NCBI GenBank assembly: GCA_001781415.1
Contig: MFLT01000006.1
Span: forward strand, 9,387 to 63,538
DNA from: Candidatus Kaiserbacteria bacterium RIFCSPLOWO2_01_FULL_45_25
GTDB lineage: Bacteria > Patescibacteriota > Minisyncoccia > Phycocordibacterales > UBA918
Direction: 5' to 3'
Length of the DNA: 54,152 nucleotides
Part shown: positions 5,413 through 34,239 of the stretch, piece after piece
Numbering within the stretch: position 1 is the stretch's first letter
Layout of the letters: each line of letters starts with the position of its first letter
Notes under the pieces: generated by a model
What the model was told of the DNA's origin: nothing
Database searches by the model: none
Seen by the model: only the letters and a program-made list of their open reading frames with translations
Translations under genes and position numbers: made by a program

Positions 5413-5802
5413 TTATTTAAGTTTGTCTTTTGTGAGTAGTTCACCCTCAATTCGGGCGGCCAGGTTTTCAATACCCCAGTGTGATTTATGAAGGATGTCT
5501 TCAGTTGGTAGGTCTAGGTCAGTTGGAACGACGTCTGTGGTATCTGAAGCGGTGAGTACAAGTACGCGGGCAGTGCGACCCCAGTCATCCATTCGAAGTT
5601 TGCGTAGTACTTCATAGCCATCAATGTCTGGCAGCTTCAGGTCTAGCAGAATTAAGTCAGGCTTTTCTTGAGGAGCGATTTTTAGACCAGCAATACCAGT
5701 TGAGGCCTTGATAGCGTGATAGCCTTTAAATATAAGCATGTCTTCAAGTGAGTCAGCCAAGTCGGCTGAGTCCTCAATTATCAGAATCTTTTTTTGTGAC
5801 AT
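5413..5802 (-). CDS. Single-domain response regulator (receiver only)
   Basis: KILIIEDS, PDLILLDLKLPDIDG, VLVLTA; start MSQKK at 5802. Confidence 0.9.
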   Translation of the reverse strand: MSQKKILIIEDSADLADSLEDMLIFKGYHAIKASTGIAGLKIAPQEKPDLILLDLKLPDIDGYEVLRKLRMDDWGRTARVLVLTASDTTDVVPTDLDLPTEDILHKSHWGIENLAARIEGELLTKDKLK

Positions 5803-5905
5803 ATGTGAGTATTGTAGCTTATTTAGAACTGAGAGAGTAGTGGCTATCCAGTAATTGAAAACCCCGTCACATTGACGGGGTTTCTGGTGGATTGCTTCCG
5901 GTGAC

Positions 5906-6223
5906 TTATGCACCGATTTTCTCTCTGATTATTCTAGATAAACCAATTGAACTCGATGGTGTGGGTGCACCCCTTTCCACTCTAGCCCTTTTGGCGGCCA
6001 GGGCGGCGTCTTCTTCATCGATTTCAGCGATGCTGATGTAGTAAGCCAGTTTTGTTTTGGCCTGCGTCAGTTCTGGTTGAAGGTCGAAGGGTACCCTTGG
6101 CCACATCCCGTAAAGCTTGGTCAGAAGGTCGGCAAGTGGCAAATTTGGTTTTGTGCCTCTACCTAACTCCCAGAGGGCAAGAGCTACCAACCTAAGGGTT
6201 TCTTTATCTTCAGGTGTCAACAT
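5906..6223 (-). CDS. Hypothetical protein (orphan unit)
   Basis: AAGGAG SD upstream of ATG 6223, an upstream promoter-like region, and a terminator-like hairpin at ~5860-5885. Confidence 0.6.
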   Translation of the reverse strand: MLTPEDKETLRLVALALWELGRGTKPNLPLADLLTKLYGMWPRVPFDLQPELTQAKTKLAYYISIAEIDEEDAALAAKRARVERGAPTPSSSIGLSRIIREKIGA

Positions 6224-6323
6224 AGCCATCTCCTTGAGTTGAGTGAAAAATGGATGCTTGGAGGGAACAACAGCAACCTTTAGTATGCAGAGCTTCCAAA
6301 CTTTTTGCAAGTTGAGGGCGGTT

Positions 6324-17498: not shown

Positions 17499-17561
17499 AT
17501 TGTGAAGCTATTAATATGATCAATTGTGAAAATGATCCTAAGGTGATAACCTTTGATCAAT

Positions 17562-20129: not shown

Positions 20130-20135
20130 TATTCT

Positions 20136-22601: not shown

Positions 22602-22607
22602 AATTCT

Positions 22608-23321
22608 ATGTACGATACTGACTATAATCGTTATATAGAAAAACTACTCAATGATCATTTTGATGCATCCCTGCTTTTAAATCATGAGCTCACTAAAGGA
22701 CAGGTTCGTGAGAGATTTATACGTGATCAAATTAATAGCCAGTTTGGCGGTACAACATTATGCACATCTGGTGTAATGTCAGTTAGAGAGGTTAGGGGTC
22801 AGGTAGAATATAAGCAGGCAGATTTAGTTATATTTCCTCATTCAATCCGAAGACGAGAAATTGGGGCTGAGTATCTTATAGACCCGAAAGATGTACTCCT
22901 TATCGCTGACGTAAAAAGTAGTGTCGAGAAGCGCGATATAGTGGAATGGAATAAAATCGCTGAAAAAATACATAAACGGGAGAAGAAAGAGAACTGGAAT
23001 AAAGATACACAGGTAGGTGTAATTAGCTATCGCTACAGTAAGGTTGATTTCCGCAGTCTACTCAAACAATTCGGCTTTGTTTATTCAAAGGACTATGGTG
23101 TATACATATATAAGAGAGGCTCTGAAGAGATTTCGAACTTAGATTTTTTATTTATTTTACATAACGTGGACGGAGAAGATCGGCGCCTGCTTTTGCGTAG
23201 AAACAAAAAGGCTCCTAGACAGAAAGATTTTATCCCTTATACATTGTTAATTGACCAGGCAGCTAGTGACGGATTTTGGGAGATGCTTTATTCATTAACT
23301 GGGGTATATTCTCAAACTTAA
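22608..23321 (+). CDS. DUF6602-like putative PD-(D/E)XK nuclease
   Basis: H...KG..RE.FI...SG...QADLVIF...P..V...DVKS pattern; operonic with the RM genes. Confidence 0.6.
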   Translation: MYDTDYNRYIEKLLNDHFDASLLLNHELTKGQVRERFIRDQINSQFGGTTLCTSGVMSVREVRGQVEYKQADLVIFPHSIRRREIGAEYLIDPKDVLLIADVKSSVEKRDIVEWNKIAEKIHKREKKENWNKDTQVGVISYRYSKVDFRSLLKQFGFVYSKDYGVYIYKRGSEEISNLDFLFILHNVDGEDRRLLLRRNKKAPRQKDFIPYTLLIDQAASDGFWEMLYSLTGVYSQT

Positions 23322-23429
23322 TAATCTGCGGGAAAAGAATTAAAGCAATCAACATTAAATTTGCAATTTGTTCCAACTTATCAAATTTAAGCAATCGATT
23401 AATCTTAAATTTTAGATTACAATAGAGGT

Positions 23430-24482
23430 ATGCAAAGTGAACATAAAGTCATTGATTTGTTCTGTGGTATTGGCGGCCTCTCTCATGGTTTTGTAAGAAG
23501 TGGTTTTAATGTAGTTGCTGGTGTAGATAATGACAGTGCTTGTAAGTATGGTTTTGAGCAGAACAACAAAGCGCAATTTGTAGATGGCGATATCTTAGAC
23601 ATTACTTCAGATCAATTAAATGATTTGTACGGTGATGTTAAGGGAATGAAGATATTGGTTGGCTGCGCGCCTTGCCAGCCGTTTTCTAAACTTAATACCA
23701 GAGGTATAACCGATAAGCAGTTACAGCCTCTCGAAAAGTTTGCACAGCTAATATCTGATATTCAGCCGGATATAGTTTCAATGGAAAACGTGAAAGGGTT
23801 GCTAAAAAATCCCATATTTGAAAAGTTCCTAGAAAATCTTGATGAAAATGGTTATCACTACTCGTACCAAATAGTTAATTTTTCTGATTATGGTGTGCCA
23901 CAAAATCGGTTCCGTTTGGTTCTCCTTGCATCTAAACATGGTGAAATTAATTTGATACCTCCTACTCACTTAAATAAAAAGAAAACAGTTAGAGATACTA
24001 TTGCGCAGTTAGAGGCGATTACTGACGGTCAGGTTTCTGAGAAAGATCCGCTTCACAGAGCAAGATCACTTAGTCCACTAAATAAGAAGCGTATAAAAGC
24101 TACGCCAAAGGACGGAGGCAACTCTCGTAGTTGGAGTGACGATCTTGTTTTAGAGTGCCACAAAAAGAATACCGGCAACTCTTATAGAGGAACTGTGTAC
24201 GGGAGAATGAGCTGGGACGAACCGTCACCTACAATGACCACGCAATGTACTGGACTTGGTAATGGCCGCTATGGTCATCCGGAGCAAGATCGCGCAATTA
24301 CTCTCCGGGAAGCTGCTTTATTCCAGACTTTCCCTAAGAGTTACAAGTTTATTGCACCCACTGATCAGATTACAACCTCTAAACTAGCTAGATTTATTGG
24401 AAATGCTGTTCCTGTACGGGCTGGGGAGGTAATTGCAAAAAGTATAGAAAAGCATATTCTTGAACTCAATGCAAGAAAATAA
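23430..24482 (+). CDS. dcm: C5 DNA cytosine methyltransferase
   Basis: DLFCGIGG, APCQPFS, ENVKG, GVPQNRFR, GHPEQDRAITLREAA, IGNAVP. Confidence 0.95.
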   Translation: MQSEHKVIDLFCGIGGLSHGFVRSGFNVVAGVDNDSACKYGFEQNNKAQFVDGDILDITSDQLNDLYGDVKGMKILVGCAPCQPFSKLNTRGITDKQLQPLEKFAQLISDIQPDIVSMENVKGLLKNPIFEKFLENLDENGYHYSYQIVNFSDYGVPQNRFRLVLLASKHGEINLIPPTHLNKKKTVRDTIAQLEAITDGQVSEKDPLHRARSLSPLNKKRIKATPKDGGNSRSWSDDLVLECHKKNTGNSYRGTVYGRMSWDEPSPTMTTQCTGLGNGRYGHPEQDRAITLREAALFQTFPKSYKFIAPTDQITTSKLARFIGNAVPVRAGEVIAKSIEKHILELNARK

Positions 24483-26103
24483 CAACCCATTTGTATTTGA
24501 AATATCGCTGAGTATCTTAGACCATCTCGGGCGAAACCTTTATCGTAATTTCGTTACGATTTTAGGTGAAGCTATTTCAAACTCTTGGGACGCCGACGCT
24601 TCAAATGTGTGGATATATGTAGACGGAGACAATTTCGTAATTAAGGATGACGGTATTGGGATGGATTTTGGTGATTTTCAGGGAAAGTTTTTGAGAGTAG
24701 GCTATTCAAAGAGGAAGAATGATAATACGCTATCTGCAAAGGGCAGACCTTTTATTGGTAGAAAAGGTATTGGTAAATTGGCTTTACTCTCATGTGCTGA
24801 AAAAGTAAGTATAATTTCAAAAAAAGAAAATGGTGAGTATATTGGAGGTACGATCAATAATTCAATACTAGACCAAGTTATTAAGGATGATTTAAAGCCA
24901 GATCAGTATCCACTAGAACCACTAGATTTAAAAATATTTGCAAAGTATATAGAAGGTCACAATCAAGGTACCGTAATTCATTTTGAAAATGTTAGAGACG
25001 GTATTAAAAACAGCGTAGACTTTTTGAAGAAAATCACGGCGCTATATTTCCGATTTTCGCTAATTGATACATCTTTTAATATATATATTAATGATGACTT
25101 AATAACCCTGGAAGATGTTAAAGATTTGTCAGATAAGACCCAGTATTTATGGTCATTAAACAATTTTAGTGATCCTTTTATTGATGAAAATCTTTCGCAT
25201 ATTGAACAGGCACACAGAAAGAATTTTGAGTTACCGGAAGGTATATCTGGTTTCGTGGCTTCAGTTTTGACACCAAAAAATCTGAGCATTTTAGGAACAG
25301 GGGAACGAGTCAGTCTTGACTTATTTGTAAACGGAAGATTACGTGAAAGAGACATTTTGAAGAATACACCTACTGCTCGAATTGCAGAGAGCTATCTATA
25401 TGGACAAGTTCACTATAATGCATTAGATAAAGGGGAAGATAAGTTCACAAGTAGCCGTGAAGGAGTCGTGGCAGATGATCCTGAATATCAAGAGTTTCTT
25501 TCTGTAATAAAAGGTGTTGTCGCAGACATAGTGAATGATTGGGATAAGTTGCGTGTTAAAAATAGAGAAGAGGGTGATCCTGAGAATGAGAGAATTACAC
25601 CAAAAGAAAGAAAATCTCGCGAACTAGTTGGAGTTGTGACAAAAGAATATGCTACAAAGACTAAAGCAGACAACGTTAACACTTGGATGGATGAACTTGC
25701 TGACGATGCACAGTTTAATGTGCAGTCTTATACAGAATGCTTCGTTTCTGAAAATCTGGTGCGAAAATATATTACAGCAAAAAATATTCCAATGACTACA
25801 GTAGCGCAAGCTCAGATAACAGAGTGGAAAGATAGAGAGGTTGAAAATAAGAGACATGCAAACATAAATATTGACATCATGAGAACGGGTGAGGATATTA
25901 GTTATCTTGGAATGGATACACTTACATTTCTCGCTGACAATACAGGTACCGCTAACTCAATGAGGACCGACGCAAAAGAATATAAACCCCTTAGGAATGC
26001 TGTGATGCATACATCATTACTTACCGATGCAGCAAAGCTTAGATTGACTACAGTTTACGAAAACATCAAAGCTAGAATTAAGTCACTAATAAACCAACCA
26101 TAA
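24469..26103 (+). CDS. GHKL (MORC/MutL-like) ATPase with C-terminal RxxxxH (HEPN-like) motif
   Basis: EAISNSWDA, DDGIGM, GRKGIGKLA, GT box; C-terminal LRNAVMH; overlaps the dcm stop. Confidence 0.82.
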   Translation: MQENNNPFVFEISLSILDHLGRNLYRNFVTILGEAISNSWDADASNVWIYVDGDNFVIKDDGIGMDFGDFQGKFLRVGYSKRKNDNTLSAKGRPFIGRKGIGKLALLSCAEKVSIISKKENGEYIGGTINNSILDQVIKDDLKPDQYPLEPLDLKIFAKYIEGHNQGTVIHFENVRDGIKNSVDFLKKITALYFRFSLIDTSFNIYINDDLITLEDVKDLSDKTQYLWSLNNFSDPFIDENLSHIEQAHRKNFELPEGISGFVASVLTPKNLSILGTGERVSLDLFVNGRLRERDILKNTPTARIAESYLYGQVHYNALDKGEDKFTSSREGVVADDPEYQEFLSVIKGVVADIVNDWDKLRVKNREEGDPENERITPKERKSRELVGVVTKEYATKTKADNVNTWMDELADDAQFNVQSYTECFVSENLVRKYITAKNIPMTTVAQAQITEWKDREVENKRHANINIDIMRTGEDISYLGMDTLTFLADNTGTANSMRTDAKEYKPLRNAVMHTSLLTDAAKLRLTTVYENIKARIKSLINQP

Positions 26104-26160
26104 ATAGGAAAAGGGGGCAGGGACAATAAAGCTAAAAATCCCGTATTGTAATTTTAAGCC

Positions 26161-26191
26161 AAACTAAAACCGCCTTGGGCGGTTTTAGTTT
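26161..26191. terminator. Bidirectional terminator
   Basis: AAACTAAAACCGCC-TTG-GGCGGTTTTAGTTT. Confidence 0.75.
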
Positions 26192-26211
26192 GCTTCATTT
26201 TCGTTTAATTA

Positions 26212-26694
26212 CTATGAGCTTTTTACAACAATAAATTCATTTAACATCGCTAGGTATTGATCTACGATTTTTGGTTGGATTTTGCCGTGATGGAATGGTT
26301 TGACGGCACCTTTGTTTGCGATGATAGTATCCACTTGATCATAGAAGAAACCGTCTGGTGTAGCGATAAAGAGGGCAGCGTGCCGCCAGGATTTTTCTAT
26401 CTCCTTGGCAATGGCGTTTACTTTGCCATTAGTTCGTTTGGCCATGTATTTGATTTCAACCAAGGTCACATTGTGCGTGTCTTCGTTTACTATCGCATAG
26501 TCTGGTGCTTTGCGAACAATTTCTATCATTGCTCTAGCATCTTCGCTCTTAGGAGCTTTGGCTAGTTGGTGGACTACCTTTTCGTAGCCAAATTCTAGTA
26601 CGGTGTAGCCTTTAGTGTTGTGTATCATTTGTTCAAAGATAATTTCGGCAATCTTTCCCTTGATCAGTTCGTGGGTGAATTTGATGTTATTCAT
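26212..26694 (-). CDS. Putative PD-(D/E)XK nuclease-fold protein
   Basis: KGKIAE...PDYAIV...VEIKY. Confidence 0.65.
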   Translation of the reverse strand: MNNIKFTHELIKGKIAEIIFEQMIHNTKGYTVLEFGYEKVVHQLAKAPKSEDARAMIEIVRKAPDYAIVNEDTHNVTLVEIKYMAKRTNGKVNAIAKEIEKSWRHAALFIATPDGFFYDQVDTIIANKGAVKPFHHGKIQPKIVDQYLAMLNEFIVVKSS

Positions 26695-26755
26695 ATGCTG
26701 AAATTATACCTTTTGTGTAGTCATTCTATATAGATAGCTTGAACAAACAGGGGAG

Positions 26756-26776
26756 TAGGTGTAGAATTCACACTAA
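26756..26776. promoter_or_regulatory. NrtR-type operator (autoregulatory)
   Basis: TAGGTGT-AGAATTC-ACACTAA ends 1 nt before the nrtR ATG and overlaps a TAGAAT -10-like box. Confidence 0.7.
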
Positions 26777-26777
26777 T

Positions 26778-27452
26778 ATGTCACAAAAAGCCCCAGATAA
26801 ATTAAGGTTTGCCGCTATGGCGGTGGATGTGGTTTTGTTTGCTGTTGTCGATGGGAAGTTGTCGGTCCTCCTTGGTGAAGTAAATCGTCCCCCGTACTAC
26901 ACCAATATTGAAGCCTTTATCGGTGGGTTGATTTTTGCCAACGAGACGGCGGAGATGGCGCTCGAACGTCATATCAGAAGTAAGGCTGAACTAAAGAAGG
27001 CGTACACTGAGCAGTTGTATACCTTTAGTGAGATTGAACGCGATCCGCGTAATCGGGTGATCTCAATTAGTTATCTTGGACTGGTGCGACCGGATGCTTT
27101 GAAGCAAGAACTGTGTGAGGGACTCCGCTGGTGTGAAGTTAAGAAGCTGCCAAAGCTGGCGTATGATCATGATGAGATGTTTAAGGTAGCGATTAGTAGG
27201 CTTAAGGGGAAGATCTCTTATACCAACATCGCGCAGTACTTGCTGCCAAAAGAATTTACACTCAGTGAACTCCAGGCGGTCTACGAACTAATCTTGGGCA
27301 AGGAAGTAGATAAGCGAAACTTTAGAAAGAAGATTATTGCGCTTGATATGGTGGTGGAGACAGGTGAGATGCAGCAGGGAGTGAAGAATCGTCCAGCGGC
27401 TTTATATCGATTTACTTCTGAGAAGCTCACTGAACTACCACTACTGATTTAA
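26778..27452 (+). CDS. nrtR: NrtR-family regulator (degenerate Nudix + winged HTH)
   Basis: AVDVVLF, EQLYTF...RDPRNRVISISY, LAYDH, FTLSELQAVYE, DKRNFRKKI, RPAALY; the Nudix box lacks the catalytic glutamates. Confidence 0.92.
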   Translation: MSQKAPDKLRFAAMAVDVVLFAVVDGKLSVLLGEVNRPPYYTNIEAFIGGLIFANETAEMALERHIRSKAELKKAYTEQLYTFSEIERDPRNRVISISYLGLVRPDALKQELCEGLRWCEVKKLPKLAYDHDEMFKVAISRLKGKISYTNIAQYLLPKEFTLSELQAVYELILGKEVDKRNFRKKIIALDMVVETGEMQQGVKNRPAALYRFTSEKLTELPLLI

Positions 27453-27462
27453 GGAGAAGGGG

Positions 27463-27487
27463 AGAGCGGCCGCAAGGCCGCTCTTTT
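27463..27487 (+). terminator. Intrinsic terminator after nrtR
   Basis: AGAGCGGCC-GCAA-GGCCGCTCT followed by a T run. Confidence 0.8.
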
Positions 27488-27498
27488 GCTGTCTGTAA

Positions 27499-27559
27499 AT
27501 AGTGTAGTTTTGACAATAAGGTAATCTTGTATCATAACTTAGTGTAGTGTTGACACTAA
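27499..27559 (+). promoter_or_regulatory. Promoter with two NrtR-type operators
   Basis: ATAGTGT-N7-ACAATAA (27499-27519, overlapping TTGACA at 27510) and TTAGTGT-N7-ACACTAA (27539-27559, perfect arms), 40 bp apart. Confidence 0.8.
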
Positions 27560-27654
27560 TACAGGAGAGGAGTATCTTTGTGTCAGATATACACAAAGTA
27601 CTTCAGCCAAGTAAATGGTCGAAGTATCCGTTCTTTGACAGAAAGGAAATAATT

Positions 27655-28782
27655 ATGACGAACGCACTTGAGGTCGTCCGCGACCAGTTTGCCAAAGCCA
27701 GTCGGTTTGCCGATGTCTTTGGGTCACTGTCCGGAGCTGATCTTGATGAGAAGAAGCGGTTGCTGAAAAAGCAATACTCCATCCTCGCCAAGATGACTCA
27801 CCCGGACCGGGTGAGTGCTCCTGAAGTGGCTCTCGCGACAGCGGTGTTTGCCGAACTGTCTACTCTCTACCGTCGGGCGCAGGATGCGCTTGTGGCCGGG
27901 GTGTACGACAACAGCTTCATCCCTTCACGGGGTGGGGCGGCTAGTACCAAGGTGACCGTCTCAGCTGGTACGGCAACGTACCAGCTTGATGTGGAAGCAT
28001 ATCGGGAGGGAGACTTCTCGAACATCCACTTGGGTGAAGCGGCGGATGGGTCAAAAATCTTTGCGAAGATTGCGGCTGATCCCACGCTGAATCCCTACCT
28101 GGTCGGTGAAGCCAACCTGCTGGCGCAAGCCAGTAAGTTGGCGGCTCTGAAGGGTATTCTCCCGTTTTTGCCCAAGCTCCTTGATTCGGTCATTTTGACC
28201 GAAGCTGGGAACGAGCAGTACCGGGTGAACCTCTATGAGTACAAGCCAGGGTTTGTCTCGCTCACTGAAATCAAAAACGCTTTTCCGGGAGGACTTCCTC
28301 CTGAAGATGCGGCTTGGATTTTTAGGCGAGTACTGGGGCAGACGCTCGCAGCGAATATGCTGGGGGTTGTCCATGGGGCGATTGTGCCAGATCACGTCCT
28401 CGTGAATCCGCTGACACACGAACCTCTCCACATCGGCTGGGCACACGCTATAGAGCGGCCAGCTGAACGAAATGCCAAGCTCACCACGGTCATCGACCGC
28501 TTCAGTGACTGGTATCCACCGGAAGTCTTGGCCCGAGAAGTGCCGTCTCATCAAACCGACCTTTACATGGCCGGCAAGACGATGGTCTACCTCCTCGGGG
28601 GAGATGTGGCTCGTGACAGATTCCCGAGCCATGTGCCAGAGCCCTTGGTGCAATTGGTGCGGCGATGCCTTGAGACGAAAGTCGAGAAGCGTCCCCGCGA
28701 TGCCTTTGCACTCATGCAAGAGTTCACGAAAGTGATCGACAAGCTCTGGGGCAGGAAATATCGGCCGCTTCGGCTGCTGTAA
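27655..28782 (+). CDS. J-domain + Ser/Thr-kinase-fold fusion (probable pseudokinase)
   Basis: KKQYSILAKMTHPDR J-domain; IFAKIA, VVHGAIVPDHV, YPPE, DLYMAG, RCL..RP; AAAGGA SD before ATG 27655. Confidence 0.82.
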   Translation: MTNALEVVRDQFAKASRFADVFGSLSGADLDEKKRLLKKQYSILAKMTHPDRVSAPEVALATAVFAELSTLYRRAQDALVAGVYDNSFIPSRGGAASTKVTVSAGTATYQLDVEAYREGDFSNIHLGEAADGSKIFAKIAADPTLNPYLVGEANLLAQASKLAALKGILPFLPKLLDSVILTEAGNEQYRVNLYEYKPGFVSLTEIKNAFPGGLPPEDAAWIFRRVLGQTLAANMLGVVHGAIVPDHVLVNPLTHEPLHIGWAHAIERPAERNAKLTTVIDRFSDWYPPEVLAREVPSHQTDLYMAGKTMVYLLGGDVARDRFPSHVPEPLVQLVRRCLETKVEKRPRDAFALMQEFTKVIDKLWGRKYRPLRLL

Positions 28783-28816
28783 CTGTGAATCTAAACTGTA
28801 ACGCAAGGAGAGTATC

Positions 28817-29836
28817 ATGGGTGGTGGAACTTGGGACAGCGGCGCCTATTCAGCCGCAACTTCTGCTCGTCGCGCCTCTGGCATTGACGATTTCGATTAC
28901 ACCAACAAGGTGCGGTCGGGTACGGTATCGGGTATCCACCCGACGCTTGACCCACTCGGGATGAAGAACCCGGACTCGAGCAAGTATCGGTTCCCGCTTC
29001 GCGAGAGTCGAGACAGCGCTGAGCACCCGGATTCGATTCCGATTGCGATCATCTTTGATGTCACCGGTTCGATGCATTCGATCCCGACGGTGCTGCAGCA
29101 AAAGCTGACGCGCCTGATGGACGTGGTCATCGACAAGGCCGGCATTCCTGATCCGCAAGTGCTGGTGGGCGCCGTCGGCGACTCCATCAGTGACCGGTAT
29201 CCGCTTCAGGTGGGGCAGTTCGAGTCGAGCAACCTGTTTGACGAACAACTGCGCAACATCATCCTCGAAGGTGGTGGTGGCGGCCAAAGCATGGAATCCT
29301 ATGCGCTGGCCTACCGCTTTGCTGCAGACCACACGGCCACCGACGCGTTTGAAAAGCGCGGCAAGAAGGGCTACCTCTTCACCATGGGTGACGAGAAGCC
29401 CTGGCCAACGGTGACGGCGGCAGATGTCTCGCGCCTCTTTGGGGTCGAGGCGTCAGAAGACGAGACGGTGGAAAGTCTCATTGCTCGGGCCTCCGAGCGC
29501 TGGGAAATCTTCCACCTCTTCTCGCTTGATGGCAGCTACCGCAACGACAAGCAAGTGCACGACACCTGGCGCAAGCTCCTCGGTGAACGGCTTGTGATGG
29601 TCGAGGATTCGTCCTTGGTGTGCGAAATCATTGCTGGTATCGTGCACATGATGGAGACGGCCTACGACGTCGATCGGGTGGTGGGTGACATCGGCCTGTC
29701 CGGTGCGGCGGCTTCGGCCGTGAAGAATGCACTCGTGCCGGTCGGAACCAGTTCTTTGGTCGCCAAGCGGCAAGCCAGCGCGAGCGGCGCCCTCAAGAAG
29801 GGTGGAGCTGCCAGGGGTGGCGTGTCGCGGATCTGA
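28817..29836 (+). CDS. vWA-domain protein
   Basis: MIDAS DVTGSM, GGGG..ESY, MGDE; MGGGTW N-terminus; AAGGAG SD. Confidence 0.85.
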   Translation: MGGGTWDSGAYSAATSARRASGIDDFDYTNKVRSGTVSGIHPTLDPLGMKNPDSSKYRFPLRESRDSAEHPDSIPIAIIFDVTGSMHSIPTVLQQKLTRLMDVVIDKAGIPDPQVLVGAVGDSISDRYPLQVGQFESSNLFDEQLRNIILEGGGGGQSMESYALAYRFAADHTATDAFEKRGKKGYLFTMGDEKPWPTVTAADVSRLFGVEASEDETVESLIARASERWEIFHLFSLDGSYRNDKQVHDTWRKLLGERLVMVEDSSLVCEIIAGIVHMMETAYDVDRVVGDIGLSGAAASAVKNALVPVGTSSLVAKRQASASGALKKGGAARGGVSRI

Positions 29837-29859
29837 TCTTTCAGTTCCTTTACGTAACT

Positions 29860-29891
29860 GCGGCGACACCAATGGTGTCGCCGCTTTCTTT
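29860..29891 (+). terminator. Intra-operon hairpin (terminator-like)
   Basis: GCGGCGACACC-AAT-GGTGTCGCCGC followed by TTTCTTT. Confidence 0.65.
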
Positions 29892-29915
29892 ATCTCAAAC
29901 TATGGAGCATATATC

Positions 29916-31319
29916 ATGCATGCATCAATTGTGACTGACCTTGGCTTTGGTGATGCTGGTAAAGGCACCATGGTCGACTACTTGGCTCGCCAGACATCTC
30001 AGGCGGTCATCGTTCGCTTCAACGGCGGTGCTCAGGCCGCACACAACGTCCACACCGCCTGCGGGAAACATCACACGTTTTCGCAGTTCGGCAGCGGCAT
30101 GCTCGTCCCGGGTACGCGGACGTTTCTTTCGCACTACGTGTTGTTTGATCCGTTTGCGCTTAGGAACGAAGCGGACGCGCTCTCGAAGCTCGTCCCCGGC
30201 GACCCACTCTCTCGAGTGATTGTCGATGGTGGTGCGCTCACGGTTACGCCGTTTCAAAAGGCAGCCAACCGGGTGCGGGAATCGCTTCGTGGAGCCGGAC
30301 GTCACGGCAGTGTGGGTATGGGTATCGGTGAAACGATGGCCGACATGCTCACGTTTCCGGAATTGGCGGTCTACGCGCACGACCTGCGTGACCTGCCGCT
30401 TTTGTTCCAAAAACTGAAGCGGCAACAGGAGCTCAAGCAAGCGGAGTTTGGTGAAAGGTTGGCGGTTGTGTCCGAATCTGGTGTTTTGCCAGAGGAGGTG
30501 CGACTCCTGTCTGATCCGAACGCTCCGCGGTACATCGCCGAGACGATGGTCGAGCTCTCGCGGCGGTTTACGCTCGGCTCGATGAGTATCCTCAAACGCC
30601 TCTCGTACGAGCATCCACTCATCTTCGAAGGTGCACAGGGAATTCTGATCGACGAGTGGCACGGCTTCCATCCGTACACCACCTGGAGTACAAGCACCAA
30701 CAAGAACGCCAACGCGCTCTTGCGTGACTTGGGCTACCTGGGGCCGGTTAATCGCTACGGCGTGGTGCGGGCATATAGCACCCGTCATGGGCCAGGACCG
30801 TTTCCAAGCGAAGACCAAGGACTCACCATGGCCTTGCCAGACACGCACAACGTGTTTGGTCGGTGGCAGGGTGGTTTCAGGGTGGGGTGGCTTGATCTGC
30901 CACTCACGCGCTACGCGCTTGCGGTATCGGAAGGTACCGACACCATTCTGCTCACGCACCTTGATCGGTGGGCTCAGTTGGGAGAGAAGAAGGTGGTGAC
31001 TGCCTACGCAGTTGAGGCATCGGCATTGTCCACGCGTGAGCGAGCGGCGATTGTCGAGATGAAGGTGGCACGCCCGGTGGCAGGGAAGGTGTATATTGGT
31101 TCCTTCAGACCGAAGGAGACGCTTGAAGACCTGACCTACCAGGAGATGCTTGGAGACATACTCGGAAAGTCCGAGCCAGTCTTTGAGTACACTGAGCTTT
31201 CAGGCGAGGCGTACGCTGACTTTGTCGGTACGCGCCTTGGTCTCCCTGTCGGGGTGACTTCGTACGGGCGCACTGCTGCTGAGAAGCGCGAGCGGCTGTC
31301 ACTCCTCCAGGCTGCATGA
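29916..31319 (+). CDS. Divergent adenylosuccinate synthetase (PurA)-like ligase
   Basis: DLGFGDAGKG, RFNGGAQAAH, HGSVGMGIG, FEGAQG, PYTTWS, RAYSTRHGPGPFPSE, RVGWLD, THLD; GGAG SD before ATG 29916. Confidence 0.88.
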   Translation: MHASIVTDLGFGDAGKGTMVDYLARQTSQAVIVRFNGGAQAAHNVHTACGKHHTFSQFGSGMLVPGTRTFLSHYVLFDPFALRNEADALSKLVPGDPLSRVIVDGGALTVTPFQKAANRVRESLRGAGRHGSVGMGIGETMADMLTFPELAVYAHDLRDLPLLFQKLKRQQELKQAEFGERLAVVSESGVLPEEVRLLSDPNAPRYIAETMVELSRRFTLGSMSILKRLSYEHPLIFEGAQGILIDEWHGFHPYTTWSTSTNKNANALLRDLGYLGPVNRYGVVRAYSTRHGPGPFPSEDQGLTMALPDTHNVFGRWQGGFRVGWLDLPLTRYALAVSEGTDTILLTHLDRWAQLGEKKVVTAYAVEASALSTRERAAIVEMKVARPVAGKVYIGSFRPKETLEDLTYQEMLGDILGKSEPVFEYTELSGEAYADFVGTRLGLPVGVTSYGRTAAEKRERLSLLQAA

Positions 31320-31342
31320 ACAGTTCTTTGAACCACAACTAC

Positions 31343-31369
31343 AAACCGGACGCTTGCGTCCGGTTTTTT
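31343..31369 (+). terminator. Intrinsic terminator ending the operon
   Basis: AAACCGGACGC-TT-GCGTCCGGTTT plus T run. Confidence 0.8.
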
Positions 31370-31431
31370 ATGTGTAGGAATTTTGAATAAAAGAAAACCC
31401 CGCCTAGGCGAGGTTTGGTTGGTGGTCTGGT

Positions 31432-31782
31432 TTAGTTGAGGAGCTGCCTGGGCGGCAACGATTCGAGGTGACAGACATATACCGCGTCCTTGCCCAGGGC
31501 CACCAGACGAGCGTTGTTGGCGGGTAGTTCCCGCGCGAGGGACGGTTGTAATTCGGGAAGTACTTCCAGAATCGGTGCCAACACCGTTGCGTCTGCCACA
31601 CAGCAGGCGATTCTGCCTGGGGTGATGGGTTCGGTGGTCAGCCAAGGAATCAGGTCGGCATATTCCGAATCTGGTTCAATGCAAAGAACCACAATCTCCT
31701 CCAGGCTAAGCCCGCGTAGCGCTGCTGCTTCGTAAACAAGACTAGACAGCATTGCTTTCTGGAGACTAACAAATTTTTTCAT
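31432..31782 (-). CDS. Hypothetical protein, paralogue family member 2
   Basis: GGGAG SD before MKKFVS; similar to 16650..17075. Confidence 0.7.
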   Translation of the reverse strand: MKKFVSLQKAMLSSLVYEAAALRGLSLEEIVVLCIEPDSEYADLIPWLTTEPITPGRIACCVADATVLAPILEVLPELQPSLARELPANNARLVALGKDAVYVCHLESLPPRQLLN

Positions 31783-31801
31783 CAGATACTCCCAGGTGTG
31801 A

Positions 31802-32197
31802 TTAAGATAGGCGGCTATACTCCATAAGGATATCGCCAGCGGTAACTGCCTCTTCGTCCAAGTCCCCGAAGAAGCAGAGTATTCTGGCTCGGCCAGGCCG
31901 GCAGGGAGCCAAAATCTCTTCTTCCATCTCCGGCATGTTCTGGACTGCGTATTCACACAATAGCCAAGAGCAGTAACCAGTAGTAAAGCGCTGGTGCGGA
32001 TTTGGGAGAAAGGCTTCTTTGGGGTAATTGGTTGCTTCCGACAAAGCGTCAGCGTGAGCCGACCAAGTTGATTTGGTGTCAAAAACAAAGATGACTGGCG
32101 GTTTGAACTTTTGGCTCGCAATTGAAGCCAGGCGCTGAAGTTCATCGATGCGGGCTGCCATCTCGTTGGCGATCGGGGGCACTTTTGGTCTAAACAT
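31802..32197 (-). CDS. Hypothetical protein, paralogue family member 3
   Basis: GGAGG SD before MFRPK; G..SW..C...P motif shared with 16650..17075. Confidence 0.7.
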   Translation of the reverse strand: MFRPKVPPIANEMAARIDELQRLASIASQKFKPPVIFVFDTKSTWSAHADALSEATNYPKEAFLPNPHQRFTTGYCSWLLCEYAVQNMPEMEEEILAPCRPGRARILCFFGDLDEEAVTAGDILMEYSRLS

Positions 32198-32352
32198 GTT
32201 TTCCTCCAGACGGTTGAAAGAGCAGGATTTAAGCAAGAGTAGTCGGAAAAGAGTTTATTGTAAAGCCGCCTGCTAATTAAGGGAAAGGGGCAGGACGATG
32301 AAACTAAAGACCTTCCTTGAAAAACCGTAAATTTGTGATATAATCACAAATA

Positions 32353-32958
32353 ATGAATAACTTTAAACCAGGAGGACAAAGAAATCGTAAAGAATTTCTT
32401 GGTGGTCGCCCTAAGTCAGATGCAAACTATGGACCGAAGAAACGATTTGAAAGTAACGACCGGGGACCACGCCGTGATGATCGTGGTGGGGAACGAAAAA
32501 TAGAACTATTTACTACCGCTTGTACTACCTGTGGTAAGTCGTGTGAGGTACCTTTCAAACCAGATGGCACTAAGCCGGTATTGTGTCGGGACTGTTTTGC
32601 TGCCAAAAACGCTGGCGGGGACAATGCTCGTAGTGGCAATCGTTCTACTAGTAATGACTTTGCACCGCGCAAGCCAGAGCGTTCATTTGATGCTCCGCGC
32701 GTAGAGCGAGCACCTGGTGTGTCTAGGGAAGACTTCGCTGCACTGTCTCGCCATGTCACAGCTCTAGATGCTAAGATCAATGAGATTCTCGCAATAGTGA
32801 AGACTGCCCATGCAACGGTTGAAAAGCCACCGGCGGCAGCTGAAGCTGCAACTGGAGAAGAGGTAACTATTAAGAAAGACCGCAAGCCTAAGAAGGCTGC
32901 AAAAGTGGTGAAGAAGACAGTTAAGAAAGCAGCGAAGAAGGTGACCAAAAAGAAGTAG
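32353..32958 (+). CDS. CxxC-x17-CxxC zinc-ribbon protein with Lys-rich tail
   Basis: CTTCGKSCEVPFKPDGTKPVLCRDCF; C-terminal KKAAKVVKKTVKKAAKKVTKKK. Confidence 0.88.
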   Translation: MNNFKPGGQRNRKEFLGGRPKSDANYGPKKRFESNDRGPRRDDRGGERKIELFTTACTTCGKSCEVPFKPDGTKPVLCRDCFAAKNAGGDNARSGNRSTSNDFAPRKPERSFDAPRVERAPGVSREDFAALSRHVTALDAKINEILAIVKTAHATVEKPPAAAEAATGEEVTIKKDRKPKKAAKVVKKTVKKAAKKVTKKK

Positions 32959-33021: not shown

Positions 33022-33297
33022 TTATCGCATCGATACCTTGAGAGACAAATCAAGAGCTTTTGCAATGCGTCCGAGTGTCTGCAGGGAAGGGTTGCCGTCT
33101 CCGCGCTCAAGGCGAGAGATCACTGGCTGGCGACTGCCAATGGCTTCAGCAAGCTCAGTTTGAGACCATCCACGCTTAATACGTTCTTTAATAATAGTTT
33201 TGACCACTTCATATTCTGGTCCAAGCATCTCGTACTCAGTTTTAGTAACTGGGTTCTTGAGTGCCTTGGCCTTAAATTGTTTGAATGTAGTACTCAT
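33022..33297 (-). CDS. XRE/HigA-like HTH antitoxin
   Basis: WSQTELAEAIGSRQPVISRLERG..PSLQTL; lies downstream of a RelE-type gene. Confidence 0.88.
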   Translation of the reverse strand: MSTTFKQFKAKALKNPVTKTEYEMLGPEYEVVKTIIKERIKRGWSQTELAEAIGSRQPVISRLERGDGNPSLQTLGRIAKALDLSLKVSMR

Positions 33298-33303
33298 AAA
33301 GTA

Positions 33304-33325
33304 AATATAACTTATAAGTTATATT
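33304..33325. promoter_or_regulatory. Perfect 22-bp palindrome, probable antitoxin operator
   Basis: AATATAACTTATAAGTTATATT between the toxin and antitoxin genes. Confidence 0.65.
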
Positions 33326-33629
33326 ATTGCAAATGATCTTTTGCGTCTCGCGCTCGGTTTAATTCTTTGTCGAGTGTCTTTTGAGTCTTCTTTACACAAG
33401 CATGCAGCAAAACAGCCTGCTTGTTATGGAAACAATAAAATATTCTAATTTCTCTAGTTCCTCGTATGCGTAGTTCAAGCAGTCCGCCAGACATATGCTT
33501 GCTATGAGGCATTCCTAAGTCACTGCCAAATTCTTCTAGTAATTCAATTGTGCGAATTACCTTCGCAATTTCCTTTTCATTTAGTGATTCAAGAAATGTT
33601 TCCACTGAATCTAGTAGAATGATTTGCAT
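33324..33629 (-). CDS. RelE/HigB-like (Gp49-type) toxin
   Basis: LGMPHSKHM..GLLELR...RIFYCF...LLH...KKTQKT; start MQIIL at 33629. Confidence 0.88.
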   Translation of the reverse strand: MQIILLDSVETFLESLNEKEIAKVIRTIELLEEFGSDLGMPHSKHMSGGLLELRIRGTREIRIFYCFHNKQAVLLHACVKKTQKTLDKELNRARDAKDHLQ

Positions 33630-33718
33630 AAAGTAATTATAACAAAAAACATCACTGCATAGAGTGATGTCTTTGTGCCTGCACCGCGAAGCTTGAGGAG
33701 CTTGCGACGAAAGCGAAG

Positions 33719-34239
33719 TGGTGGAGATGTGGAGAATCGAACTCCAGTCCGAATCAGGTACCACATTGTGAGTCTACAGTGCGTAGTCTCTCCTTTGTAA
33801 GACTTCTGTACTGAGGGAATTTCTTTGTCGTTACGATTTTTTATACAGTCATCGTAGATTTACTACGCCTTCTGTTTAAAAAAATCTAAACTCCGCGAAC
33901 TCCATCTCAGTACAGAAGTCTTTTTAAAATTAGTATCTATAGAAGCGACAAAACAATACTAATTCGAGTTGTTACAATCTTGAACCTAGAAGACAACGGC
34001 AACTAGATCCACAGCCTCGTGGCTATTCTACAACTGAAACGTATGAGGCGTTTATCTCAGTCGCATCACTCCGGATCTAGACGAATGGTTACGCTAGAGC
34101 GGGAGCGAATCCAAACGCGTTAGCGTATGGACTTGGTATTGCTTTGTTTGCAAATACGGATGGAACCTTTTAGCGAATTGGTTACCATTTTCGACACTGC
34201 ACACAATGGGTAGGCTAACCGTCGATGCCTAGCATCCCC
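33719..34239 (-). ncRNA. ssrA: tmRNA (521 nt, with internal insert)
   Basis: 5' GGGGATG pairs with 3' CATCTCC-ACCA (G3.U70); T-arm GGAG-TTCGATT-CTCC; tag ORF 34151-34089 ANKAIPSPYANAFGFAPALA*; directly downstream of smpB. Confidence 0.95.

Follow-up and report, generated by a model that had tools for sequence, protein, structure and literature searches.

A gene trio encoding a J-domain pseudokinase, a vWA protein and a divergent PurA-family ligase in large phages and cellular genomes

A trio of genes for a J-domain pseudokinase, a vWA protein and a PurA-family ligase is borne mainly by large phages and has entered cellular genomes several times, where it usually lies beside a regulator of the NrtR family. 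We examined one cellular copy within a stretch of 54,152 nucleotides (hereafter the window) from a small groundwater Patescibacterium, whose genome measures 0.96 Mb and is 98% complete. The trio of the window is compositionally foreign DNA, a cellular copy located between restriction-modification (R-M) genes and a toxin-antitoxin pair. The original prediction had put the module forward as a candidate undescribed system, and no prior description of the trio was found in PADLOC or in the searchable literature; in PADLOC the vWA protein and the ligase were unmatched and the kinase-like protein gave weak domain-level matches only. We put at about an even chance the reading that the trio is a phage-derived, nucleotide-centred module of phage-host conflict, which reshapes or tags the purine-nucleotide pool.

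Genes and regulatory DNA of the locus

The four genes, the jump in GC content, the promoters and the terminators that had been described from the sequence were all present, with four ORFs on the + strand. The features of the locus are as follows (no strand is assigned to the operators).

17553-22601, type I R-M genes, upstream of the module
23430-24482, C5 methylase gene, upstream of the module
24460-26103, GHKL-type type II restriction endonuclease gene, upstream of the module
26739..26767, + strand, promoter-like site of the nrtR-like gene (TTGAAC, 17 nt, TAGAAT), -10 box overlapping operator O1
26757..26775, candidate operator O1, 19-bp palindrome with 2 mismatches
26778..27452, + strand, nrtR-like gene (NrtR-family Nudix-wHTH); ORF 26739-27452 opens at TTG 26739, likely start ATG 26778
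27463..27487, + strand, terminator-like hairpin after the nrtR-like gene (9-bp stem, 4-nt loop, T-run), found by eye and unlisted in the automated scan
27500..27518, candidate operator O2, one mismatched position
27540..27558, candidate operator O3, palindrome arms perfect, shares bases with the -35 box
27550..27578, + strand, promoter-like site of the three-gene unit (TTGACA, 17 nt, TATCTT), 10/12 matches
27655..28782, + strand, gene for a J-domain and Hanks-type pseudokinase (ORF 27547-28782; 375 aa from the likely ATG 27655)
28817..29836, + strand, vWA/MIDAS protein gene (phrog_2971, vWA fold)
29860..29894, + strand, strong hairpin with U-run between the vWA and PurA-like genes (11 pairs, 9 GC), also delimited as 29860-29884
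29916..31319, + strand, PurA-family ligase gene (PF00709; ORF 29727-31319, likely ATG 29916; 467 aa)
31343..31374, + strand, terminator-like hairpin with T-run ending the unit (10 pairs, 6 GC), also delimited as 31343-31366
33022-33764, Gp49/HTH pair (toxin-antitoxin), downstream of the module

The GC contents of the kinase-like, vWA and PurA-like genes are 0.565, 0.604 and 0.587, compared with 0.459 for the nrtR-like gene and 0.456 for the remaining window. The R-M and restriction endonuclease genes upstream and the Gp49/HTH pair downstream agree with the defence-island setting proposed earlier. It had also been stated that no NAD gene lies nearby, which is correct for the locus, and NAPRTase and Nampt were likewise not found in the genome.

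The product of the nrtR-like gene, for which ATG 26778 is the probable start in view of the operator and -10 box at 26757-26775, matches NrtR_WHD (93.8 bits) and NUDIX (24.7 bits) in Pfam, and scores 128 bits against NF050029, whose equivalog cut-off is 400. It contains the single occurrence of NrtR_WHD in the host genome. Among solved structures it is most similar to AraR (5bs6, 2e-35, 125 bits), followed by NrtR (3gz5, 4e-23, 85 bits). ADP-ribose had been proposed as the effector, which is conjectural; the closest solved relative is the arabinose-responsive AraR. The Nudix box is degenerate in the alignment, and thus this protein may act as a sensor and not as a hydrolase; in Micromonospora-type loci the box is intact, and therefore the regulator there may also be an enzyme.

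The candidate operators are 19-bp palindromes of the form TAGTGTAG-N5-ACACTA. Four matches to the pattern were found in the window versus 0.22 expected, a number reached in 0/100 shuffles. Throughout the genome, sites that deviate from the pattern at no more than one position are confined to the module locus; those with 2 mismatches (9 and 6) are no commoner than matches to the control (7 and 5). The palindrome is present at both window promoters and was found again in two other Patescibacteria, one of which (locus L015) has three similar candidate operators in the spacer between nrtR and the operon, and the other (L013) has one before the operon with nrtR 3.4 kb off. This conservation backs the predicted control of the unit by the NrtR-like protein.

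The hairpin between the vWA and PurA-like genes (-30.2 kcal/mol, z -5.47, 0/200 shuffles), which was absent from the earlier description of the locus, has an equivalent in the same gap of L015. As no promoter would fit ahead of 29916, it probably terminates transcription partially or acts as an attenuator.

The three proteins

The ligase is a member of a distinct subfamily of PurA, as judged from sequence comparison. It matches Adenylsucc_synt (PF00709) in Pfam with 189 bits, but its scores against the NCBIfam purA models (150 and 129 bits) are well below the cut-offs of 402 and 396, and it reaches 34.7 bits against the PurZ model NF038379 (cut-off 300). In PHROGs it belongs to phrog_1211, where it is grouped with PurZ-type annotations, and in the tree a branch of 2.16 separates the subfamily from canonical PurA. 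We tabulated key residues in 158 members (E. coli numbering). The phosphotransfer residues are retained in 156-158 of them (D13, K16 and H41 in 158, Q224 and D333 in 157, T239 in 156), and the guanine-specificity aspartate is also intact; since these residues and the P-loop are kept, GTP-driven activation of a 6-oxopurine is likely. Nearly every member has a rewritten aspartate loop, and the IMP-phosphate motif is changed as well, with the replacements N38 to Q (157), V273 to H (158), T300 to W, Y or F (146) and T301 to Q (153) and the deletion of R303 in all 158. The roles of the changed loop residues are presumably those given in the E. coli PurA literature. These changes suggest that the subfamily has lost the pocket for aspartate, the usual amino-acid substrate of PurA.

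The ligase is the sole PurA homologue encoded in the host genome, and purB was not found in this 98%-complete genome by a search whose control was positive in 14/14 genomes. Four larger genomes hold a canonical purA (514-557 bits) besides the PurA-like copy of the module. The sub-cut-off scores, the rewritten loop, the absence of purB and this additional copy beside canonical purA all bear out the earlier view that the protein is not a plain PurA.

The kinase-like protein matches phrog_3043 at 1e-28, and its DnaJ match in Pfam (17.1 bits) is below the cut-off of 27.8. Its predicted structure (pLDDT 88.3) resembles PknB and AAK1 with E values of about 1e-10. Compared with Chk1, HRD is replaced by HGA and DFG by IGW. 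The J-domain pseudokinase that had been recognized in the window represents a family-wide trait: the HPD motif of the J-domain is present in 118 of 128 members, and the HRD aspartate is found in 1 and missing in 127. DnaK is encoded in the host genome.

The vWA protein has no Pfam match but belongs to phrog_2971 (4e-74), and its AF2 model (pLDDT 89.3) is matched by Foldseek to vWA and integrin beta-I domains with E values of about 3e-6, consistent with a vWA fold. Residues D81, T83, G84 and S85 as well as G191, D192 and E193 are invariant in the alignment, and an N-terminal M-G-x-x-x-[W/F/Y] motif is near-invariant (84/84 and 64/65). Its relatives form 1,035 clusters at E<=1e-30.

Distribution in phages and cells

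The vWA gene was detected in 220 of 50,697 phage records (201 from Mycobacterium, 10 from Rhizobium, 6 from Vibrio and 3 others). All 201 matched Mycobacterium phage records (Bixzunavirus) carry the trio, which is also present in Rhizobium and Vibrio phages; in Gizmo, gp267-270 are arranged in the order kinase, vWA, small ORF and PurA-like. The accessible text of a genome announcement places the kinase and PurA-like genes among the phams common to all C1 phages (PMC9476963). In Rhizobium phage RHph_Y65 a PRTase-like gene and an NMN adenylyltransferase/Nudix gene lie at a distance of 3-4 kb from the pair, and in a Vibrio phage the module adjoins anaerobic RNR genes. IMG/VR yielded 269 loci; their contigs reach 512 kb and range in GC content from 0.26 to 0.71.

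Neighborhoods were compared in the best 80 cellular and the best 80 viral matches, which are not random samples. Among the best 80 of the 269 IMG/VR loci, the PurA-like gene was found in 78, the kinase-like gene in 65 and NrtR in 4, and nothing was conserved besides the trio (for example, no dATPase or pyrophosphatase). Of the best 80 cellular loci, 74 have the PurA-like gene after the vWA gene, 59 have the kinase-like gene before it and 67 have an NrtR-like gene at its flank, with no further conserved neighbor. In both sets the ligase is always paired with the vWA gene and usually with the pseudokinase, and no phosphatase is conserved near the module. Some Nocardia loci have no kinase-like gene, and two Chloroflexota loci (L068 and L070) have no ligase gene within 8 kb. 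The linkage across phyla that had been predicted for a cellular stress or anti-phage module is thus real, but the module is primarily one of phages, where it mostly occurs without NrtR (4/80).

Within the host phylum, the vWA gene is present in 4 of 401 genomes. Viral sequences make up the basal branches of the tree, whose root lies on a long branch. The window clade is sister to two loci, L105 and L106 (support 0.92), the former on a contig with terminase, helicase and topoisomerase genes, and the remaining three Patescibacteria copies each cluster with different viral contigs. In two actinomycete genera the module is single-copy and present in 71/101 species each, unlike a patchy defence island gene, and in the Micromonospora group it is single-copy with neighbors recurring in approximately 15 loci. 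Such prevalence and genus-level conservation of neighbors are as compatible with a role in physiology as with one in conflict. No recognizable defence genes were found in the flanks of L015, a relative that lies in no obvious defence island.

Functional interpretation and relation to known systems

Under the favoured reading, the NrtR-like protein would repress its own promoter and that of the operon through the three 19-bp palindromes until a small sugar-nucleotide ligand, for which ADP-ribose is the leading guess, relieves repression. Transcription would then cross the kinase-like and vWA genes and partially read through the hairpin into the ligase gene. The ligase might, like PurA, spend GTP on phosphorylating a purine nucleotide at its 6-oxo group and hand the activated base to an amine other than free L-aspartate. 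The adaptor and regulator of this ligase, or of its target, would be the vWA protein, acting by way of its metal site, and the pseudokinase, acting by way of its J-domain and host DnaK. Phages would express the trio on their own schedule, and cells would hold it off until the signal.

It is possible, if doubtful, that the trio served phages first, in takeover or counter-defence, and was captured by cells afterwards; it might, for example, replenish adenine nucleotides or NAD-related metabolites after their deamination or depletion by host immunity, with ties to NAD-reconstitution pathways and RADAR-type deamination. This would suit its presence in the 201 Mycobacterium phage records, in phages of Rhizobium and Vibrio and in the 269 loci from IMG/VR, the genes near the RHph_Y65 and Vibrio phage copies, and the phams conserved across C1 phages (PMC9476963); however, the cellular copies seem to be inherited stably and kept under a repressor, which is needless for a pure phage weapon. 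The module envisaged originally, in which ADP-ribose from NAD breakdown derepresses the operon and the ligase alters nucleotides so that phage or cell is stopped, appears rather unlikely. The absence of PADLOC matches other than weak, domain-level ones, the viral nature of the deepest branches and most diversity, the single copies with conserved neighbors in 71/101 species of two genera, the L015 flanks and the closer similarity of the regulator to arabinose-responsive AraR than to ADP-ribose-responsive NrtR (125 versus 85 bits) argue against it, even though the repressor adjoins 67 of the best 80 cellular versus 4 of the best 80 viral loci, R-M genes and a toxin-antitoxin pair flank the window module, the regulator has no NAD salvage gene to control, and Nudix-HTH-repressed vWA operons have been predicted to function in conflict (Iyer et al. 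2022, PMC9503650, accessible text).

We regard as improbable a salvage role in which the ligase, be it a true PurA or a variant that uses ammonia and can dispense with PurB, converts IMP to AMP for a cell with a reduced genome. Its status as the only PurA homologue and its intact phosphotransfer residues and guanine-specificity aspartate would be in line with such salvage, and replacement of aspartate by ammonia would account for the absence of purB; nevertheless, its scores are far below the purA cut-offs, almost every member has a rewritten aspartate loop and R303 is deleted in 158/158, it is kept as an extra copy beside canonical purA, it always accompanies the vWA gene and usually the pseudokinase, and the marker vWA gene occurs in just 4/401 genomes of the phylum. 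A PurZ-like pathway that makes a non-standard purine for phage DNA is very improbable: a phage-borne PurA homologue sharing phrog_1211 with PurZ-type annotations and the nucleotide-metabolism genes close by in two phages would fit, but not the 34.7 bits against a PurZ cut-off of 300, the lack of a conserved dATPase or pyrophosphatase neighbor in the best 80 of 269 viral loci, or the chromosomal, repressor-controlled copies common in actinomycetes.

Compared with known systems, the ligase shares its Pfam family, P-loop and phosphotransfer residues with PurA (EC 6.3.4.4), but it falls below every NCBIfam purA cut-off, has an altered aspartate loop, is paired with a vWA protein, and is found in a host without PurB or as an additional paralogue in genomes that have a true purA. 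PurZ, the succino-amino-deoxyadenylate synthase of Z-genome phages, is likewise carried by phages and is a PurA homologue whose substrate use differs, but the module ligase is partnered by a vWA protein and a J-domain pseudokinase, is bacterial-chromosomal too and scores poorly against NF038379. TerY-P-type systems are triads of a vWA protein, a Ser/Thr kinase and a PP2C phosphatase. The module resembles such triads (Kaur et al. 2020, in the part accessible) in that a stand-alone vWA gene adjoins a Hanks-type kinase-fold gene, but its kinase has a J-domain and no catalytic aspartate, and the earlier comparison with TerY-P is weakened by the lack of a conserved phosphatase.

The regulator resembles Shewanella NrtR and Bacteroides AraR in its Nudix and NrtR_WHD domains, full-length similarity and palindromic sites at its own and target promoters, but it governs no NAD, pentose or ADPr-glycohydrolase gene. 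NrtR regulons with palindromic operators were described by Rodionov et al. 2008 (PMC2330246), whose main text, as accessible, gives no identity for the functionally uncharacterized targets nrtX and nrtY. In the accessible text of Iyer et al. 2022 (PMC9503650), where PurA and adenylosuccinate are unmentioned, Nudix-HTH repressors are predicted to silence ADPr-related conflict operons containing vWA chaperones. These predicted ARG-centred, Nudix-HTH- or WYL-regulated operons share the repressor type and a vWA protein with the window module, which differs from them in having a PurA-like ligase instead of an ADP-ribosylglycohydrolase or phosphatase.

Layout and control of the locus

The four co-oriented genes of the original prediction, which encode an NrtR-family regulator, a J-domain kinase-like protein, a vWA protein and a PurA-like ligase (the last three forming the trio), were confirmed by the ORF listing and family scans. 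The trio had also been described as a GC-richer unit with its own promoter and terminator, and this was borne out: GC content is 0.565 in the kinase-like, 0.604 in the vWA and 0.587 in the PurA-like gene, versus 0.459 in nrtR and 0.456 in the remaining window, and a promoter-like site and a terminator-like hairpin were found.

Features of the module and its surroundings (gene starts are likely ATG starts from the ORF listing and sequence)
17553-20129: type I R subunit, upstream of the module
20136-22601: fused type I M-S protein, upstream of the module
22608-23321: DUF6602 protein, upstream of the module
23430-24482: C5 cytosine methylase, overlapping the GHKL-type restriction gene
24460-26103: GHKL-ATPase-type type II restriction enzyme, upstream of the module
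26739-26767: promoter-like site (signal scan)
26778, + strand: start of the nrtR-like gene
27463-27487: hairpin with a T-run (by eye)
27550-27578: promoter-like site (signal scan)
27655, + strand: start of the kinase-like gene
28817, + strand: start of the vWA gene
29860-29884: strong hairpin with a U-run between the vWA and PurA-like genes (signal scan)
29916, + strand: start of the PurA-like gene
31343-31366: terminator-like hairpin (signal scan)
33022-33764, - strand: Gp49-like (HigB-type) and HTH_3 genes, likely a toxin-antitoxin pair, just beyond the module

Compared with shuffles, the vWA-ligase intergenic hairpin folds strongly (z -5.47), and the related locus L015 has a hairpin of other sequence and equal shape at the matching position; an Rfam scan over 26100-32400 gave no match up to a gathering score. 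The two restriction-modification sets lie next to each other at 17553-26103, where GC falls to the window minimum of 0.36-0.40. Two minus-strand ORFs (26212-26694 and 31432-32145) flank the cassette; they lack a family match, have homologues in the close relative L014 only, and lie outside the conserved module. Also common to the window and L014 only is a 201-aa protein (32353-32958) with a treble-clef zinc finger (zf_Tbcl_2, 51 bits) and a lysine-rich tail. The host genome (0.96 Mb, 13 contigs) is 98.29% complete, and the nearest named record is a Saccharibacteria MAG at 99% identity. The 20 DNA sequencing runs listed are groundwater, soil or sediment metagenomes, and no RNA run was listed.

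The regulator, the only NrtR_WHD protein in the host genome, combines an N-terminal NUDIX domain (24.7 bits, cut-off 21.1) with a C-terminal NrtR_WHD domain (93.8 bits, cut-off 27). Among solved structures, the arabinose-responsive AraR of Bacteroides (5bs6, 2e-35) is nearest to it, followed by Shewanella NrtR (3gz5, 4e-23), both matched over the full length. The original prediction saw no NAD gene here, which agrees with our finding neither NAPRTase nor Nampt in the host genome. The Nudix box is degenerate in the window and Nocardia-type regulators and intact in the Micromonospora type (NUDIX 75.6 bits, NrtR_WHD 45 bits). We consider ADP-ribose a possible trigger for the module. In another relative, L013, a stand-alone Nudix hydrolase gene (5667-6242, 59 bits) lies directly upstream of the kinase-like gene.

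A candidate operator palindrome, TAGTGTAG-N5-ACACTA, is found at 26757, 27500 and 27540, and its sites overlap the nrtR promoter at the -10 box and the operon promoter at the -35 box. Over both strands of the window it has 4 matches versus 0.22 expected, a number reached in 0 of 100 shuffles. Genome-wide, sites with 0 or 1 mismatch occur at the module locus only, whereas sites with 2 mismatches are just as frequent as in the control. L015, whose vWA protein is 65% identical and whose nrtR is divergent, has three palindrome sites, all inside a 183-bp spacer; in L013 a site lies just upstream of the kinase-like gene, with nrtR 3.4 kb downstream. The palindrome in the window is 19 bp long, whereas most of those reported by Rodionov et al. 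2008 (PMC2330246) are 21 bp.

The PurA-like ligase and its partner proteins

The ligase had been predicted to be divergent rather than a plain PurA, and several lines of evidence agree with this. It matches Adenylsucc_synt (PF00709) with 189 bits and scores far below the purA equivalog cut-offs (NF002223, 150.4 vs 402 bits; TIGR00184, 128.8 vs 395.55 bits). Residues were tallied over 158 subfamily members with E. coli PurA from the K-12 record as reference. The activation core is retained: the P-loop is present together with D13 (158), K16 (158), H41 (158), Q224 (157), T239 (156), R306 (155) and D333 (157), among which we take Asp13 and His41 to be catalytic in E. coli PurA and Asp333 to determine guanine specificity. 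Altered positions include N38 (Q in 157), V273 (H in 158), K331 (H or C across the subfamily) and T129 (C or V in 155), the last of which binds the IMP phosphate in E. coli PurA together with T128 and R143. In the loop of residues 300-305, which we take to bind L-aspartate in the E. coli enzyme, T300 is replaced by W, Y or F (146), T301 by Q (153) and R305 by F, W or L, and R303 is deleted in all 158; thus, aromatic and Gln residues replace the free-aspartate pocket in nearly all members. A canonical PurA from one of the module's Chloroflexota loci keeps the E. coli residues.

The window ligase is the sole PurA homologue in the host genome, in which no purB match was found (a control was found in 14/14 genomes), and four larger module-bearing genomes carry a canonical purA (514-557 bits) as well. 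Because of these residue changes, the lack of purB in the host and the additional canonical purA elsewhere, the module ligase, as judged from sequence, is not a housekeeping PurA. In the Micromonospora genome G401 (contig C1, 2438221-2450830), the canonical purA is only ~10 kb from the module ligase gene. Most likely, the ligase would activate a 6-oxopurine nucleotide with GTP and transfer it to an amine other than aspartate. Since the activation chemistry of PurA appears to be kept while the acceptor pocket is different and conserved, a new nucleotide reaction seems likely.

The claim of a J-domain pseudokinase stood up among 128 kinase-like homologues (65 viral and 63 cellular), of which 118 have the HPD motif and only one the HRD aspartate (HGA in the window protein). 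The DFG aspartate is present in 56/128, and the VAIK-like Lys and helix-C Glu in 63/63 cellular and 40/65 viral copies, which makes nucleotide binding with no classical phosphotransfer plausible. Pfam DnaJ matches the window protein weakly (17.1 bits, cut-off 27.8); in its predicted model (pLDDT 88.3), helices 30-48 and 55-81 flank the HPD triplet (residues 49-51), which is the arrangement that a J-domain should show. The model resembles AAK1 and PknB (E ~1e-10, TM by target 0.66-0.78), a PDB profile search with the alignment returned ordinary kinases only, and the protein matches phrog_3043 'kinase' (1e-28). DnaK is encoded in the host genome (905 bits). In L011, from another Patescibacterium, a second dyad (10188-12184) adjoins the vWA-ligase pair. 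Its first gene encodes a fusion of a J-domain (33.6 bits) with a protein kinase of normal appearance (101.6 bits), and its other gene a second vWA protein, without the Met-Gly N-terminus. J-kinase/vWA dyads may form a wider family.

The vWA protein has no Pfam match and matches phrog_2971 (4e-74). Its model (pLDDT 89.3) has a vWA fold, with the SpaC vWA and integrin beta-I domains as best matches (E 3e-6 to 1e-5, probability 1.00), and a PDB profile search with the alignment matched no solved structure by sequence. D81, T83, G84, S85 and G191, D192, E193 are invariant in a 24-sequence alignment and suggest a DxTGS variant of the DxSxS...T...D metal-site motif, as judged from columns D81-S85 and G191-E193. 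When 1.84 billion representative proteins were searched with a profile, 2,404 relatives were found at E<=1e-3, of which 1,035 reach E<=1e-30. Most of the 150 representatives listed are matched from residue 1 onwards, and 148 of 149 aligned starts show the N-terminal motif M-G-x-x-x-aromatic.

A search for fused forms gave six longer proteins, four with PF00709, all rejected as Rosetta-stone evidence because of read-through, a missing P-loop or an insert-bearing vWA. P0122, P0124, P0125 and P0126 contain stretches rich in Arg, Gly and Pro, as is typical when translation reads through out of frame, in P0121 a vWA part is followed by a ligase part with no P-loop, and P0123 is an insert-bearing phage vWA protein. 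In many Bixzunavirus phages (matches H4-H30), the vWA gene is in two pieces ~1.7 kb apart with an insert of ~250 aa, as in P0123, exactly at the conserved GYxF/GDE metal-site motif. The insert is labelled HNH endonuclease in two records and is intein-like in having Cys as first residue and Asn-Cys at its end; Pfam gave no match to it, and an intein was not confirmed.

As the vWA N-terminus is near-invariant, the natural nucleophile of PurA is an amino-acid alpha-amine and the aspartate pocket has been replaced, one could imagine that the ligase attaches the activated purine nucleotide to the N-terminal Gly of the vWA protein through its alpha-amine, and that the J-domain pseudokinase and DnaK handle the tagged protein. 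Methionine removal would expose this Gly to the ligase, and the product of such N-terminal 'purinylation' would be a tagged protein and not a free metabolite. We regard this scheme as a long shot; transfer to an amine other than aspartate, whichever it is, is the reading we prefer.

Distribution in cells and phages

The predicted linkage of nrtR, J-kinase, vWA and PurA-like genes across phyla was recovered from a vWA pattern scan of 185,579 species genomes, which gave at least 581 confirmed relatives. The best 80 of these loci are mostly from Actinomycetota, with 7 from Chloroflexota, 2 from Saccharibacteria and 1 from Planctomycetota. Among them, 74 have a PurA-like gene after the vWA gene (three of the other six are on contigs <3.3 kb), 59 have a kinase-like gene before it, and 67 have an adjacent NrtR-like gene (24 upstream, 43 on the downstream side of the ligase gene); no further neighbour is common to these 80 loci beyond single genera. 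In some Nocardia loci, an ABC-F ATPase or a desaturase takes the place of the kinase-like gene. Two Chloroflexota loci (L068 and L070) have the kinase-like and vWA genes and no PurA-like gene within 8-kb flanks, and may be a two-gene variant. The module is present, always in single copy, in 71/101 species each of Micromonospora and Nocardia (~70% of the species sampled), and in 3/151 species of a third genus, Streptomyces (L084). The vWA gene was found in 4/401 genomes of the host phylum.

Among phages, the vWA protein matches 220 of 50,697 records (Mycobacterium 201, Rhizobium 10, Vibrio 6, other 3), and the ligase matches the Mycobacterium, Rhizobium and Vibrio phage groups too. Gizmo, a Bixzunavirus mycobacteriophage, has the order kinase (gp267), vWA (gp268), small ORF (gp269) and PurA-like (gp270); in the Vibrio and Rhizobium phages, the vWA and ligase genes occur as a pair. 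In Rhizobium phage RHph_Y65 (L003), a small HIRAN-domain gene directly precedes the vWA gene, and PRTase-like and NMN adenylyltransferase/Nudix genes (1426-3101) lie 3-4 kb upstream of the pair. IMG/VR contains 269 confirmed loci, on contigs of up to 512 kb with GC 0.26-0.71; the best 80 include the ligase gene in 78, the kinase-like gene in 65 and a true NrtR in 4, with no conserved neighbour beyond the trio. The module's centre of gravity is in large phages.

A FastTree (LG+gamma) analysis included 158 ligase sequences and 2 canonical PurA (6/86 cellular or isolate loci and 2/80 viral loci were dropped for having no match of >=300 aligned residues). A branch of length 2.16 sets the subfamily apart from canonical PurA, and both of its basal groups consist of viral sequences. 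Viral contigs L105 and L106 form the sister group of the clade with the window, L014 and L015 (support 0.92), and L105 has terminase, helicase and topoisomerase matches. The three other Patescibacteria copies group with different viral contigs, and the actinomycete clade is nested, with Bixzunavirus and other viral contigs branching off below it. Given a root placed on a long branch and biased sampling, we read transfer from phage to cell as the likely direction, not as a proven one.

The trio is thus conserved in every cluster C mycobacteriophage record matched and in hundreds of large uncultured phages, and forms a widespread module to which no name or function is attached. The repressor lies mostly beside cellular copies and rarely beside viral ones, which offers a testable contrast as to who uses the module and when. 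The ultra-small bacteria provide a clear case of a phage-type module settled in a genome without a normal purine pathway. Phage relatives of PurA led earlier to the discovery of Z-DNA.

Relation to known systems

Consistent with the suggestion that the system may be undescribed, PADLOC 2.0.0 gave no match for the vWA or PurA-like protein and only weak partial matches of the kinase-like protein to MkoA, mad6 and PD-T4-6. No paper linking a PurA-like gene with a vWA, J-domain kinase or NrtR gene was found in the openly searchable literature. Iyer et al. 2022 (PMC9503650) predict Nudix-HTH- or WYL-repressed operons centred on ADP-ribosylglycohydrolase, with vWA chaperones; the words PurA and adenylosuccinate are absent from that paper, Kaur et al. 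2020 and a 2021 jumbo-phage survey. A genome announcement (PMC9476963) states only that all C1 phages have the kinase and the PurA-like gene as conserved genes. Among the NrtR targets with no known function in Rodionov et al. 2008 are nrtX and nrtY, not identified in the main text, and we think that they are probably other genes because the module is so rare in Streptomyces. Our analyses support the idea that the module is conserved, is absent from catalogues and encodes a non-standard PurA-like enzyme, and we rate it as an undescribed system; a defence role is possible. Of the module loci, the window and L015 were inspected for a defence-island setting, and L015 showed no obvious one.

The module differs from the TerY-P type triad, which carries a PP2C phosphatase gene, whereas no PP2C phosphatase is among the conserved neighbours in our cellular and viral tallies. 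Its ligase is far below the PurZ cut-off (NF038379, 34.7 vs 300 bits). With PurA it has the P-loop core in common, but the aspartate loop and equivalog score differ and the PurB partner is missing in the host. Although the regulator does not reach the NrtR equivalog score (NF050029, 128.1 bits, cut-off 400), it shares with the NrtR family both the domain layout and candidate operators upstream of its own and target genes.
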